Shown in pieces: positions 232 through 7,051 of a stretch of DNA of 7,051 nt. The DNA lies in the IMG/VR virus record IMGVR_UViG_2663762857_000014; one strand, given 5' to 3'. Source of the stretch: a virus (taxonomy: Duplodnaviria > Heunggongvirae > Uroviricota > Caudoviricetes). The position numbers and the translations under genes were made by a program. Each line of letters starts with the position of its first letter. The stretch's first letter is position 1. The notes beneath the pieces were generated by a model. The model was not told the origin of the DNA, did no database searches, and saw only the letters and a program-made list of their open reading frames with translations.

Positions 232-3200
232 ATGGGTAAAGGTGGCGGCAAGGCGCACACACCTCGTGAGGCGAAGGATAATCTCAAATCCACGCAGATG
301 ATGAGCGTGATTGATGCGATTGGTGAGGGACCGATAGAAGGTCCGGTGAAGGGACTGCAGAGTATCCTGGTGAACAAAACCCCGCTGACGGACACGGACG
401 GTAATCCCGTGATACACGGTGTGACGGCGGTCTGGCGCGCCGGGGAGCAGGAGCAGACACCACCGGAAGGCTTTGAGTCCTCCGGAGCTGAAACTGTACT
501 GGGCGTGGAAGTGACGAAGGCAAAACCGGTGACGCGCACCATTACGTCCGCGAACATTGACCGCCTGCGGGTTACCTTCGGGGTGCAGTCACTGGTGCAG
601 ACCACGTCAAAGGGTGACCGAAACCCGACATCCGTCCGCCTGCTGATTCAGTTACAGCGTAACGGTAACTGGGTGACAGAAAAGGATGTCACCATTAACG
701 GCAAGACCACCTCGCAGTTTCTGGCGTCGGTGATTCTGGATAATCTGCCTCCCCGTCCTTTTAACATCCGGATGGTCCGGGAGACGGCGGACAGCACCAC
801 GGACCAGTTGCAGAACAGAACACTCTGGTCATCGTACACCGAAATCATCGATGTGAAACAGTGCTACCCGAACACGGCGATTGTGGGGCTGCAGGTGGAT
901 GCGGAGCAGTTCGGTGGTCAGCAGATGACGGTGAACTACCATATCCGCGGTCGCATCATCCAGGTGCCGTCAAACTATGACCCGGAAAAACGCACCTACA
1001 GCGGTATCTGGGACGGCAGTCTGAAACCGGCATACAGCAACAACCCGGCCTGGTGCCTGTGGGACATGCTGACTCACCCGCGCTACGGGATGGGAAAACG
1101 CCTGGGGGCGGCGGATGTGGACAAGTGGGCGCTGTATGCCATCGGGCAGTACTGCGACCAGACGGTCCCGGATGGTTTCGGGGGCACAGAGCCGCGGATG
1201 ACCTTTAATGCGTACCTGGCACAACAGCGTAAGGCGTGGGACGTTCTCAGTGATTTCTGCTCGGCGATGCGCTGTATGCCGGTATGGAACGGCCAGACGC
1301 TGACGTTCGTTCAGGACCGCCAGTCGGATGTGGTGTGGCCGTACACGAACAGCGATGTGGTGGTGGATGATAACGGCGTGGGGTTCCGCTACAGCTTCAG
1401 TGCCCTGAAGGACCGGCACACGGCGGTGGAGGTGAATTACACCGACCCGCAGAACGGCTGGCAGACCTCCACGGAACTGGTGGAAGACCCGGAAGCCATA
1501 CTGCGCTACGGACGCAACCTGCTGAAGATGGATGCGTTCGGCTGCACCAGTCGCGGTCAGGCCCACCGTGCCGGGCTGTGGGTGATAAAGACAGAACTGC
1601 TGGAAACGCAGACGGTGGATTTCACACTCGGGTCACAGGGGCTGCGTCACACACCGGGTGACATTATTGAAATCTGTGATAACGACTATGCCGGGACTAT
1701 GACCGGCGGACGTATCCTGTCCATTGATGCTGCCACCCGCACCCTGACGCTGGACCGTGAGGTTACCCTGCCGGAGACAGGTACATCGGCGGTGAACCTG
1801 ATTAACGGCAGCGGTAAGCCGGTGAGTGTGGACATCACCGCACACCCCGCGCCGGACCGGATACAGGTCAGTACCCTGCCTGATGGTGTGGAGACATACG
1901 GGGTGTGGGGACTCTCCCTGCCGTCACTGCGCCGTCGCCTGTTCCGCTGTGTCTCCATCCGGGAAAACACGGACGGCACCTTTGCCATCACGGCAGTGCA
2001 GCACGTACCGGAAAAAGAAGCCATTGTGGATAACGGAGCCCGCTTTGAGCCGCAGTCAGGCACCCTGAACAGCGTTATCCCACCGGCAGTGCAGCACCTG
2101 ACGGTGGAGGTGAGCGCAGCTGACGGCCAGTATCTGGCGCTGGCGAAATGGGACACGCCGCGGGTGGTGAAGGGCGTGCGCTTCAGTCTGCGCCTGACCA
2201 GTGGAAGCGGTGAGAACAGCCGCCTGCTGACCACCGCCATCACTGCCGATACGGAGCACCGTTTCAGTGGCCTGCCTCTCGGGGAATACACCCTGACGGT
2301 CAGGGCGATTAACAGCTATGGCCAGCAGGGCGAACCCGCCACCACCACGTTCCGGATTAACGCACCGGCAGCGCCTGCCGGTGTTGAACTGACGCCGGGG
2401 TATTTTCAGATAACGGCGGTACCGCGTCTTGCGGTGTATGACCCGACGGTGCAGTTTGAGTTCTGGTTTTCGGAGGCAAAAATTGCAGACGCCGCACAGG
2501 TGGAAACCTCTGCCCGTTATCTGGGGACCGGCAGTCAGTGGAGTGTCTCCGGCCCGCACATTAAGCCCGGAAAGGATTTCTGGTTTTATGTGCGCAGCGT
2601 CAACCTGGTGGGTAAATCTGCTTTTGTGGAAGCCAGTGGACGGGCGAGCAATGATGCTGCGGGCTATCTGGAACTTTTCCGGGAAAAGATAGGAAAAACG
2701 CATCTGGCAGAGGCGCTGTGGGCAGAGATTGACAACAGTCAGCTGAAGGACGAGATGGCGGAAATGCAGACCACCATCACAGAAACCCGCAATGAAATCA
2801 CACAGACGGTCAGTAAAACGCTGGAGGACCAGAGCGCCACCATACAGCAGATACAGCGCGTGCAGAAGGACACAAATGATGACCTTGCTGCACTTTACAT
2901 GCTGAAGGTACAGAAAACAAAAAATGGCATACCCTATGTTGCCGGTATTGGAGCGGGGATTGAGGATACTGATGGCCAGCCCCTGAGCAACATACTGCTG
3001 CTGGCTGACCGTATTGCGATGATTAACCCGGAGGACGGCAACACCACGCCGTTATTTGTGGCGCAGGGGAATCAGTTGTTCATGAACGATGTGTTCCTGA
3101 AGCGGCTGTTTGCGGTGAGTATCACCTCGTCCGGCAATCCCCCTACGTTCTCCCTGACGCCGGAAGGCAGGCTGACGGCCCGTAATGCGGATATCAGCGG

Positions 3201-3762
3201 ACATATCAGTGCGAACTCGGGCACGCTGAATAATGTCGTGATAGCGGAGAACTGTACCATCAAAGGTACTCTGAGAGCGGAAAATATCATTGGCGATGTG
3301 GTGAAAACGCACAATGTCAGTCTTCCTGATCTCAGGGCTGCAGGGGAGCACAGACACGCGACAGAACGAACGGTTACTGTCATTGATGATCAGTCGTTTG
3401 ACCGGAATATTGTTATCCCGCCGGTTTTTTATTCCGGTATTATCTACAAAGGAAGTGATGGTGACGGTGCGACCTCAATCTGTACGCTGACGGTGAGTGT
3501 GAATGATCGGGTGGTGTTCAGCAAAACCTCATCCATCGGTACCAGGCGTACGTCAGGGGGATACCCCGTTCAGGAAGACACCATATATCCCGGGTCATCC
3601 ACTCCGTTCAGCTATTTCATGAGGATGGCGTCAGGGGGAGGTGATGTCAGGATCAAGTTCCGGATTGAGGTCATCTATTATGGAACTGCACCGGGTTTTA
3701 TGACCACAGGGATACAGATCACAACGATGAAGGCGTCAGCTTCAGGATTTGTGGAAAGTTAA
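232..3762 (+). CDS. J: Lambda J-like central tail fibre / host specificity protein (tail tip), 1176 aa
   Basis: 3531-nt ORF with ATG at 232 and Shine-Dalgarno AGGAG at 223-227 (5-nt spacer). The N-terminus [39 protein letters not shown] and internal stretches ([39 protein letters not shown]; [30 protein letters not shown]; [29 protein letters not shown]; [18 protein letters not shown]) match what I recall of phage lambda gpJ (about 1130 aa). Antisense ORFs across it are explained by its length and GC richness. Confidence 0.95.
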
Positions 3763-4082
3763 TCCCGGACGATCGTGATTGCCGGAAGGAGACAAAAACC
3801 GCACAGTATGCGCGGGTGCCTTTGGCTGATGGCCGGAGGGAACACCTGAAAGCCTGATGTGAAAAGGCCCCGAGTCAACTTCAATGTTAACCCGAGGCCC
3901 TGATCCGTCTATCTTAAGCAAGTGGCAGGTTAGCGCCTCTCCGTAATAAGGAGCAAGTGCTGTGTCGCAAAAACCACCGTGATTTGTATCACTGTAGTGC
4001 TCATTATCTGGATCACCCACCGTTCACTGTGTGAATTCCGGTTCCGGATAGCACCTTTTTAATCCTGTAAACCACGATTTTT

Positions 4083-4118
4083 ACCGCAGACCGGGAAACC
4101 GGCACTGCGGTTTTTTTT
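4083..4118 (+). terminator. Rho-independent terminator: interrupted stem (ACCGCAG / CTGCGGT outer, CCGG / CCGG inner, GAAA tetraloop) followed by T8
   Basis: Read directly: accgcag-a-ccgg-GAAA-ccgg-cact-ctgcggt-tttttttt. The outer arms 4083-4089 and 4105-4111 are exact reverse complements, and the T8 run is 4111-4118. On the opposite strand the hairpin is followed by A-rich sequence, so it is unidirectional. It ends 13 nt before the Stf start codon. Confidence 0.6.
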
Positions 4119-4131
4119 ATGGGGAAAATCT

Positions 4132-5583
4132 ATGACAGTCAGAATATCGGGCGTGCTGAAGGACGGCACCGGGAAGCCGGTACCGGGATGCACCATTGAA
4201 CTGAAAGCCCTGCGCACCACGGAGACAGTGATTGTCACCACGGTGGCGCAGGGGCAGCCGGGGGAAACCGGCAGTTACAGTTTTGATGTGGAGCCGGGGT
4301 GGTACCGGGTGACGCTGAACACGGAAGGGTACGCCCCGTCGTATGTGGGTGACATTCTGGTGAAGGCGGATTCTGAGCCGGGAACGCTGAATAAATTTCT
4401 GATGGAACAGGATGAGGCGCAGTATTACCCGAAAGCGCTTGCAGAGCTGGAAGTGGTGGCAGCGGAAATCCTGAAGCGTGCTGAAGCGTCGGCGGCGAGT
4501 GCAGAGGAAGCGAAGAAACGGGCAGAGAATGCCCGGGGACCGGCGGGCGAGAAGGGGGACACAGGTCCACAGGGTGCCACAGGGGCACAGGGACCAGCCG
4601 GGGCAACGGGGGCGGTCGGACCAAAAGGTGAGCCGGGGCCAAAGGGAGAACGGGGAGAAACAGGTCCACAGGGACCGAAGGGCGATAAAGGTGACCCGGG
4701 CGGACCGCCGGGGCCGAAAGGTGACACCGGCCCACGTGGAGAGGCCGGACCACCCGGACCACAGGGTCCGGCAGGGCAAAGCGGCCCTAAAGGGGATAAA
4801 GGTGAACCCGGCGCAACAGGTCCGGCAGGTCCCGCAGGCCCTCGGGGAGAAACCGGCCCTGCAGGTCCTGCGGGTCCCGCAGGCAGTGTCGCCAGTGTTC
4901 CGGATGCCAGCACATTACAGAAAGGTGTTGTACAGCTGAGCAGCGATACCAACAGCGATGATGAAACAAAAGCGGCAACCCCAAAGGCTGTGAAAGCGGT
5001 AATGGCAGAAGTGCAGGCAGCAAAAACGAAGGCAGAAGAGGCAGCAACCCGGGCAGCAGTCCCCGGACCGAAGGGGGACAGGGGGGAACCTGGCGCACCT
5101 GGTGCAGTGGGGCCCGCAGGCCCACGGGGACCGGCTGGTGCAGCTGGTCCCAAAGGTGATGCAGGCCCGGCCGGACCCCGGGGTCAAAAAGGTGATACAG
5201 GACCTGCAGGTCCGCAGGGACCAGCTGGCCCGGCAGGCCCACAGGGGGTTGCCGGAAGGGACGGCAATGTTTCCACCGGGAAATATGCGGTTGGTTCTTA
5301 TGTTTTTGGCGTGTCCTCTGTCTATGCTGACGGCGAAGGCTTATTTTCATCAGGGATATATGAAAACATTCAGGGTAGCTCCATTGATCTGATTTCAATA
5401 CAGACAACACAAACAGGCGCATCAACACCAAATCAAATCTGGTTTTTGAAACTGGAGGAGGACATTCCGGGGGTGTGGCGGGCATTTAAACCCGCCGCAT
5501 ATATTGATCTGATGCCAGAAGGAATGCAAGGAGGAAAGAACTCGATGTTTAACTTTATTACTCTTTTCCAGCGGATAGCGTAA
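4132..5583 (+). CDS. stf: Side tail fibre protein (lambda Stf-like N-terminus) with collagen-like Gly-X-Y shaft, 483 aa
   Basis: ATG at 4132 with GGGGA 7-8 nt upstream. The N-terminus [26 protein letters not shown] closely resembles the lambda Stf N-terminus as I recall it ([26 protein letters not shown]). The motif [28 protein letters not shown] (aa 264-291) matches the conserved tail-fibre motif KGIVQLSSATNS...AATPKAVK. Two long G-X-Y runs occupy aa 136-251 and 311-377. A non-repetitive C-terminal domain of about 105 aa follows. Confidence 0.9.
4537..4884 (+). repeat. Collagen-like Gly-X-Y coding repeat block 1 within stf (about 38 triplets, one register break at [12 protein letters not shown])
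   Basis: Translation [116 protein letters not shown]. The DNA is a GC-rich 9-bp-periodic repeat, which explains the long stop-free antisense and out-of-frame ORFs in the track. Confidence 0.9.
5065..5262 (+). repeat. Collagen-like Gly-X-Y coding repeat block 2 within stf (about 22 triplets)
   Basis: Translation [68 protein letters not shown], immediately after the conserved KGVVQLSS...TPKAVK motif and an Ala/Lys-rich linker. Confidence 0.9.
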
Positions 5584-5594
5584 CGAGGTACGGC

Positions 5595-6188
5595 ATGATA
5601 ATAGCGATCAGTGCGGTTAAGGATCCGGTATATACCAGGCAGGGATGTATCAACTGTCTGGTGAAACTCACCGGAGTTGACGAGGAGGAGACGGACTGGC
5701 TTCCGTTTACGGCGACACCAACGGACGAAGCCCCTCATGGAAAAGAACTCTGGCAGGCACTGAACTCAGGTCAATATGGTCAAATCGCGCCGTATACTCA
5801 ACCGGAAGATGCGGTGGAAAAAGCCAGACAACAGAAAATTAATGAGATCAACGCCTGGCGTAATTCGATGGAAGCGGCGAACTACACGTTTGAGCACAAT
5901 GGGCGTAAATGGGACTACGGGAAGTCAACGCAGACGCGTCTTGAGCCGTCGGTGGCGGCAGCGAAAGCGGGGAAACTGCCGGAGGCGTTTTTCTGGACGG
6001 ATGCGGACAATAATGACGTACCGATGGACGCTGAAACACTGATTGCTCTGAGTGCTGCTGCAGAGCAGGCGATGTTTACCAAAGGTCTGGAAATTCATGT
6101 CAGACAGCGCACGATGAAAAAAGAGATTGAAGCGCTGGATGATGCGGAAGCTATACTGGCGTATAAGGTCGGCATGGCTGACAGGTGA
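5595..6188 (+). CDS. Putative tail fibre assembly protein / chaperone (Tfa-like by position), 197 aa
   Basis: ATG at 5595 with GAGG at 5586-5589 (5-nt spacer), 11 nt after the stf stop. Its size and position directly downstream of the side tail fibre gene match lambda tfa and other tail fibre assembly chaperones. I cannot confirm family membership by eye, so the function rests on synteny. Confidence 0.75.
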   Translation: MIIAISAVKDPVYTRQGCINCLVKLTGVDEEETDWLPFTATPTDEAPHGKELWQALNSGQYGQIAPYTQPEDAVEKARQQKINEINAWRNSMEAANYTFEHNGRKWDYGKSTQTRLEPSVAAAKAGKLPEAFFWTDADNNDVPMDAETLIALSAAAEQAMFTKGLEIHVRQRTMKKEIEALDDAEAILAYKVGMADR

Positions 6189-6907: not shown

Positions 6908-6985
6908 ATGAGAGCGGCGAGACATCAGATTTTCTTTATATATCCGATGTTGAGTTGTTTTATTTGTATACAGATAATTTTATAG
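6908..6985 (+). CDS. Hypothetical small ORF, 25 aa, hydrophobic (MRAARHQIFFIYPMLSCFICIQIIL); possible small membrane peptide or leader peptide
   Basis: ATG at 6908 preceded by AGGAG at 6896-6900 (7-nt spacer); TAG stop at 6983-6985. Ends 10 nt before the next ATG. The call rests on the strong RBS alone; the ORF is too short for composition statistics. Confidence 0.2.
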   Translation: MRAARHQIFFIYPMLSCFICIQIIL

Positions 6986-6995
6986 GGTATACCAC

Positions 6996-7051
6996 ATGAG
7001 CAAGAAATTTGCAAATACTATTCTTTCTTCTGCTGTTGCCGGATTGATGTT
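6996..7051 (+). CDS. Possible 5' end of a gene running off the window; the N-terminus MSKKFANTILSSAVAGLM looks like a signal peptide (secreted, fimbrial or outer-membrane protein?)
   Basis: ATG at 6996 followed by two lysines and a hydrophobic stretch, the typical n-region and h-region of a Sec signal peptide. No classic SD directly upstream, so it may be translationally coupled to the small ORF. Only 18 codons are visible. Confidence 0.3.
   Translation, partial: MSKKFANTILSSAVAGLM

Follow-up and report, generated by a model that had tools for sequence, protein, structure and literature searches.

The J gene of this tailed phage, an E. coli prophage (IMG/VR record IMGVR_UViG_2663762857_000014) encodes a protein whose body follows that of phage lambda and whose end does not, which raises the question of what kind of domain the divergent end is and which bacterial receptor it would recognise. 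That the J C-terminus determines receptor specificity in lambdoid phages, a premise of the earlier note on this DNA, is established knowledge (PMC6646904, PMC11338833). It behaves as an exchangeable specificity module (PMC6646904), and lambda switches from LamB to OmpC when its J C-terminus is exchanged at aa 964 (PMC11338833).

In the window, by which we mean the whole 7,051-nt stretch of DNA analysed, J is a single open reading frame with its stop codon ending at 3762. The earlier note had placed the divergent end at 3304–3762, and these positions are accurate: the K1025 codon at nt 3304 opens the last 152 aa, and the peptides quoted in that note are present. In Pfam the translated protein shows a complete series of J domains (FNIII-A_GpJ, Phage-tail_3, Ig_J, Ig_J_second, Phage_Tail_Tip and Ig_GpJ_C); it matches the lambda J structure in the PDB (8iyk, E 0), and shares 63% identity with lambda J over its whole length. 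Its layout is as follows.

232–3762, plus strand: J, tail tip attachment (central tail fibre) protein; intact ORF of 1176 aa, from the ORF list and translation
232–2721, plus strand: lambda-like body with hub domains and two FNIII/Ig domains (aa 1–830); 74% identity to lambda, 97% to PhiR5_1; Pfam
2722–2916, plus strand: helical segment (aa 831–895), counterpart of the lambda alpha-helical shaft; 11% identity to lambda, 28-aa insertion
2917–3291, plus strand: central straight fibre, a conserved beta-prism (aa 896–1020) and left recombination flank of the tip module; 70% identity to lambda, PF09327 at aa 871–998
3292–3759, plus strand: receptor-binding domain (aa 1021–1176), a beta-sandwich of the PF12421/lambda J tip family

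Identity calculated segment by segment confirms a lambda-like body with a sharply bounded divergent end. The beta-prism fibre region has tblastn matches in 486 phage records, and in the tip (aa 1021–1176) identity to lambda falls to 24%, with 33% in the N-terminal half and 15% in the C-terminal half, a drop that is abrupt and far past chance. The segment that the earlier note described as coiled-coil-like (around nt 2670–2930) and different from lambda corresponds to aa 831–895 and does differ by the 28-residue insertion, which faces a gap in both lambda and Fels-1 and makes the shaft about one third longer than that of lambda. It is 100% identical in PhiR5_1. The long form is present in 798 of the 5426 complete E. 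coli genomes (median, four copies) and is thus a widespread allele and no peculiarity of this locus. The names of the shaft and domains are taken from the structural work on lambda, in which the shaft flips and partly refolds upon receptor binding (PMC11101478).

Homology and predicted fold of the J tip

Over their whole length, the last 152 aa can be aligned with lambda J aa 999–1129 (BLASTP to lambda aa 990–1132, E 1e-9, 24% identity). Pfam places PF12421 on the tip with E 1.2e-11 and 45.3 bits, above the curated cut-off of 26.2, the match covering only profile positions 15–77 of 135. This family (Ig_GpJ_C, DUF3672) bears the description [quoted passage not shown]. The match begins at aa 1039 and the ORF ends at aa 1176, which places it at the extreme C-terminus, after the PF09327 fibre (aa 871–998). 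Tip residues 1–153 also align with positions 629–766 of the 769-position profile phrog_496 (E 2.5e-11).

In a multiple alignment, motifs shared with the tips of lambda, Fels-1, mEp460, cdtI, Perceval and PhiR5_1 run along the entire domain (DDxxFDRxI, N-G/D, M-x-x-G-x-G and a C-terminal K...G). The tip holds a 17-residue stretch and the peptide MKASASG, both conserved family motifs, and retains the invariant columns F36, R38, I40, G49, V68, N71, M112, G115, G117, F123, K147 and G152; it departs slightly from the family consensus in having D in place of G after N71 and A in place of P113. The best marked of the motifs is located as follows.

3382–3402, plus strand: conserved motif DDQSFDR (aa 1051–1057); D32, D33, F36, D37 and R38 near-invariant in 109 sequences, conservation 0.70

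A monomeric AlphaFold2 model of the tip, built from 109 family sequences, reached a pLDDT of 85.2 and a pTM of 0.81. Its four best Foldseek matches in the PDB are the J tip structures 9wca, 8xck, 8xcj and 9wcb (E 1.6e-10 to 3.9e-9, TM 0.62–0.68), and the next-best match lies at E 4.5e-5 and TM 0.35. The window tip is thus predicted to have the same beta-sandwich fold as the solved tips of lambda, which binds LamB, and of A8, which binds OmpC. A search of viral folds in BFVD returned generic jelly-roll and collagen-tip matches alone (TM ≤0.55) and was uninformative.

These results contradict the claim of no resemblance between the lambda C-terminus and the last 150 aa: BLASTP, Pfam, PHROG and fold evidence together reject an unrelated, non-homologous C-terminus, and structure prediction of the C-terminal ~150 aa gave a lambda-type tip fold and nothing unrelated. 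Homology to the LamB-binding domain of lambda, which the earlier note had named as the result that would refute its reading, is formally present in the alignment at 24% identity. Taken as a test of the receptor it asks too much, since the A8 tip, which binds OmpC, resembles the window tip to the same degree. Tip homology tells the identity of the domain and not which receptor it binds, and 24% identity does not imply the use of LamB.

Rarity of the tip and the module that carries it

The tip is rare. A blastn search with nt 3256–3762 gave zero matches among 50,697 phage records, the best tblastn identities for the tip in phage records are 32–38%, and the attempt to assign a receptor by similarity to a characterised phage failed on these grounds. 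The tip occurs in three of the 5426 complete E. coli genomes (NCTC9112 and LZSFT34 at 100%, FHI_NMBU_10 at 95%) and in three IMG/VR contigs, and is absent from the GTDB species representatives. Among 1.84 billion representative proteins, whole-tip matches form two clusters, one from E. coli and one a Salmonella fragment, and the remaining matches reach only the N-terminal half of the tip. Two further matches from this search (P0123 and P0124) were set aside because they match a short G/D-rich segment in several stretches; they are no tip relatives. The E. coli tip fragments (29 and 98 member sequences) all carry generic names or none. In pairwise comparison, the other sampled tip types share 38–79% identity among themselves, and the window type 28–37% with every one of them; judged by its sequence, the window tip is the outlier of the family among the types sampled.

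The boundaries of the divergent region are those of an exchanged segment.

3256–3777, plus strand: exchanged mosaic module of ~520 bp carrying the receptor-binding domain; left breakpoint at 3237–3256, right breakpoint at ~3778

The closest phage record, PhiR5_1, is 95.7% identical across J; its similarity ends at nt 3255 and resumes at 4105, and between these points it has another tip and lom. Similarity to a prophage of E. coli M18 ends at 3236 and is picked up again at 3778, while DNA similarity to lambda ends at 3296 and that to Fels-1 at 3309. To the left of the module lies the region that codes for the fibre and to its right a hok/sok remnant, and homologous recombination in these flanks would have brought the module in. 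When the tip is compared with the FHI_NMBU_10 allele (95% identity), dS is 0.11 in the tip and 0.27–0.48 in the J body, and the lower value in the tip fits transfer of the module between J backbones. The dN/dS for the same pair is 0.28 in the tip and 0.09–0.11 in the body, and the value of 0.28 indicates that the tip domain is maintained by purifying selection. The J specificity region has been described as an independent evolutionary module (PMC6646904), and the tip replacement is an ordinary kind of module swap in lambdoid phages.

Low G+C was considered as a mark of a foreign module and rejected as non-specific, as all five J genes checked have a lower GC3 in the tip than in the body. In the J genes of lambda, PhiR5_1, Fels-1, M18 and FHI_NMBU_10, GC3 is 0.50–0.63 over the last 150 codons and 0.67–0.73 in the body; in composition, the tip modules as a group seem to have had a history apart from the rest of J.

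To the right of the module lies a decayed locus.

3763–4120, plus strand: decayed hok/sok-type toxin-antitoxin locus, flanking the module on the right; in many E. coli genomes, similar DNA is annotated with Hok/Gef genes

This remnant occupies the place of lom, which is found there in lambda, PhiR5_1, mEp460 and cdtI, and about 1750 of the 5426 E. coli genomes have related DNA downstream of J. At gathering thresholds Rfam finds nothing in the window; below the gathering score, sok (RF01794) is matched at 3814–3973 on the plus strand (32.5 bits, E 1e-5). Compared with the 46-aa Hok of FHI_NMBU_10, the Hok frame has a frameshift near its start and is truncated by a ~95-nt deletion, and a minus-strand terminator at 3815–3799 would fit Sok. 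A minus-strand ORF of 92 aa at 3742–4020 was considered as a receptor-linked exclusion gene that would move along with the module and rejected, because it has no Pfam match and a weak PHROG match (E 0.002), and also because the decayed hok/sok locus on the plus strand explains the region.

Several other accessory features were observed in the window. Its left end (1 to ~96 on the minus strand, followed by a spacer to 231) lies inside a prophage sodC gene for a Cu/Zn superoxide dismutase, between tail genes I and J. This segment matches annotated sodC in six complete E. coli genomes at 99%, sits at the same position as the minus-strand STM0924 of Salmonella phage Fels-1, and has a G+C content of 39% compared with 59% in J. 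The side-tail-fibre gene at 4132–5583 has a lambda Stf N-terminal domain, four collagen-repeat stretches and a Phage_fiber_2 repeat, and its C-terminal ~80 aa gave no family match. It is followed at 5595–6188 by a DUF4376 protein, where a tail-fibre assembly protein would be expected. Because similarity to related prophages breaks at 5178–5816, the side-fibre tip and the start of its partner gene look like a second swapped specificity module. Alignment with PhiR5_1 (L010, from 8257) places the start of a YadA-like adhesin/invasin gene near the window's right end (~6984–7051); the region has a G+C content of 39% and suggests another moron.

Variable loops and the receptor question

Conservation in the tip, calculated as the mean over 16 non-redundant tip types, alternates loop by loop between high (0.70–0.97) and low (0.11–0.38) values, given here by residues of the domain.

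Residues 10–20: 0.38
Residues 31–37: 0.70
Residues 50–60: 0.34
Residues 71–72: 0.97
Residues 84–105: 0.11
Residues 113–118: 0.72
Residues 131–135: 0.31

Because of this alternation and the up-and-down strand order of the model, the conserved loops, including DDQSFDR, are inferred to face the fibre, and the four variable loops to be the distal, receptor-contacting loops L1–L4. In lambda, the four bottom loops of the tip insert into LamB (PMC11101478). The predicted counterparts in the window are the following.

3319–3351, plus strand: variable loop region 1 (aa 1030–1040), putative distal L1, with G1038 aligned to lambda S1012; conservation 0.38; three of the 11 aa differences from FHI_NMBU_10
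3439–3471, plus strand: variable loop region 2 (aa 1070–1080), putative L2, at the lambda 1048–1049 indel hotspot; conservation 0.34; 9 to 24 residues long in the family; I1071V and K1073Q between alleles
3541–3606, plus strand: expanded loop (aa 1104–1125), putative L3, at the lambda 1077–1078 indel hotspot and the hallmark of this tip type; conservation 0.11, pLDDT 62–66; three aa differences between alleles
3682–3696, plus strand: variable loop region 4 (aa 1151–1155), putative L4, with a 2-aa deletion opposite lambda D1107–I1108; BLASTP; conservation 0.31

Nine of the 11 amino acid changes that separate the tip from the FHI_NMBU_10 allele fall in these predicted variable loops. Four indel hotspots in J have been tied to lineage splitting, and positions 1012 and 1107 are critical for the switch of lambda to OmpF (Maddamsetti et al. 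2018, PMC6646904). The window tip has indels at three of the four (1012, 1048–49, 1077–78 and 1107): a 1-aa insertion in the 1048–49 loop, a 19-aa insertion at lambda V1077/Q1078, and the deletion at 1107. Neither the residues nor the loop lengths at the four hotspots are lambda-like; over lambda aa 995–1132, including the bottom loops, identity is 24–28%, which is not a close similarity, and all four variable loops differ from those of lambda. The most conspicuous is the expanded loop, modelled with low confidence (pLDDT about 62–66). The span between the anchors VVFSK and FSYFMRM measures 27 residues in the window tip; the Salmonella fragment has 22 residues there, and 104 of 108 relatives have 7–9.

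The differences in all four loops, the 19-aa insertion at 1077–1078 and the loss of D1107, a residue critical in lambda receptor switching (PMC6646904), make another receptor or another mode of binding likely. The earlier note had proposed just this alternative, and it stands on the loop differences; the domain on which it was based is nevertheless a homologue of the LamB-binding domain and not an unrelated one. By analogy with characterised tips, the receptor of the window tip is probably not LamB. Among characterised phages, LamB serves lambda, and OmpC serves 434, A8, 1A2 and phi330, the J trimer docking on a trimeric porin in each case. The J proteins of phi330 and 434 use OmpC, and OmpC is also implicated for that of Gifsy-1 (PMC12502783, PMC12312913), which is only 18% identical to lambda in the tip region. 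Since every characterised tip of the family binds a trimeric porin, such a porin, of the OmpC/OmpF type, is our candidate for the receptor, at about even chances.

The best explanation of the locus is that J ends, over its last ~156 aa, in an uncommon allele of the usual receptor-binding domain of lambdoid J proteins (PF12421), carried on a swapped module, with distal variable loops and a receptor that is probably not LamB and perhaps a trimeric porin; in this joint form we hold it to be somewhat more probable than the remaining readings combined. The tip would dock as a trimer on an outer-membrane protein of E. coli, and receptor binding would most likely trigger the lambda-type twist of the fibre and flip of the shaft that open the tail, the same opening mechanism being likely because the fibre, the helical shaft and the proximal motifs of the tip are conserved.

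The enlarged loop invites a further proposal, namely that its 27 residues at 1077–78 give specificity for an outer-membrane receptor new to lambdoid J proteins. The candidates would then be a variant porin or some protein other than a porin, closed to the A8, 1A2 and lambda tips. A loop of this type is found only in the E. coli clade of the window and, at 22 residues, in one Salmonella fragment; we regard the proposal as tentative and rather doubtful.

An alternative that goes beyond porins altogether is that the loop retargets the tip to an undocumented receptor class, either a monomeric outer-membrane protein of the FhuA, BtuB, TolC or OmpA type or a surface glycan. The uniqueness of the long loop speaks for it, but the lectin-like matches of the model are generic for the fold and far weaker than the matches to J, the family members characterised so far all bind, as trimers, to trimeric porins, and no accessory receptor-binding gene adjoins J, so that we consider a receptor of this class unlikely.

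The tip might instead still bind LamB through other loop chemistry, that is, the same receptor in a different binding mode. LamB is ubiquitous in E. coli, and the window tip shares its fold with a LamB-binding tip. Phage 21 also bears on this reading: its deposited J tip (OL657228, 1786–2286) is 47% identical to that of lambda, yet LamB has been reported as its native receptor (PMC11336670), and divergence alone is accordingly no proof of a receptor change. The "Phi21" paper itself gives its J 94% nucleotide identity with lambda, compared with only 47% for the deposited J tip, which leaves two explanations: a laboratory strain unlike the deposited genome, or continued use of LamB by a tip of 47% identity. 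The window tip, however, is 24–28% identical to the lambda tip and 35% to the phage 21 tip, differs in all four loops, lacks the counterparts of D1107–I1108 and carries 19 additional residues at 1077–1078. A few point changes in the lambda J loops already alter receptor use (PMC6646904), and the equally similar A8 tip binds OmpC. Continued use of LamB is, on this balance, quite improbable.

It is highly improbable that the tip is decaying in a cryptic prophage and has no current function: the adjoining hok locus has decayed, the downstream side-tail-fibre genes are pseudogenes in FHI_NMBU_10 and no isolated phage among the 50,697 phage records carries the tip, but the 1176-aa ORF is intact, the changes at a dN/dS of 0.28 are concentrated in the loops, the fold is predicted with confidence, an identical tip occurs in several unrelated strains and three viral contigs, and the upstream tail gene cluster is complete in E. 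coli NCTC9112.

Significance and comparison with characterised J tips

The range of E. coli strains open to a lambdoid phage, or to a lambda particle engineered for delivery, is set by the J tip. Few tips have been characterised in published retargeting work (lambda, 434, A8, 1A2, phi330 and Gifsy-1), all of them LamB or OmpC binders. As an outlier in sequence with a long loop at a known specificity hotspot, the window allele is a reasonable candidate in the search for new receptor specificity, and, if the proposal of a new receptor were true, engineered lambda particles would gain a further module by which to retarget them. The allele also illustrates clearly how a specificity module of ~0.5 kb moves from one J backbone to another. 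Both the modular nature of J tips and the indel hotspots in them are already on record, and the understanding of these phages is unchanged; what is new here is a rare, uncharacterised member of the well-known family of exchangeable J tips.

Apart from the E. coli cluster, the one whole-tip match among the 1.84 billion representatives is a partial J protein from Salmonella enterica (WP_366545345.1; P0003), with 57% identity (E 1e-32). The two share the long loop, of 22 residues in the Salmonella protein, and the motifs FSYF, GGGD and GIQITT. Unlike the window tip, the Salmonella sequence comes from another genus and is a 119-aa fragment on a 653-bp contig without context; it is likewise uncharacterised.

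Among the solved structures, the lambda gpJ tip (aa ~995–1132; 8XCK closed, 8XCJ bound to LamB) occupies the same site after the beta-prism fibre, belongs to PF12421 and has the shared motifs, and its fold matches the window model with a Foldseek E of 4e-10 and a TM of 0.66. It differs in its sequence (24% identity), in the 19-aa insertion at 1077–1078 and the deletion of D1107–I1108 in the window tip, and in variable loops that are unrelated in sequence. The tip of the A8 gpJ chimera (9WCA closed, 9WCB on E. coli OmpC; Brodel et al., Nature 2024) lacks the long loop, and its sequence match to the window tip is limited to the N-terminal half (residues 22–76, phmmer E 9e-4).

The J lineages described by Maddamsetti et al. 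(2018; PMC6646904) show the same pattern as the window tip, with insertions at 1048–49 and 1077–78 and a deletion at 1107, and like them the window tip recombines as a module apart from the J body. It departs from them in the much greater length of its 1077–78 insertion (a loop of 27 residues, against 7–9 in 104 of 108 relatives) and in belonging to a very rare lineage.
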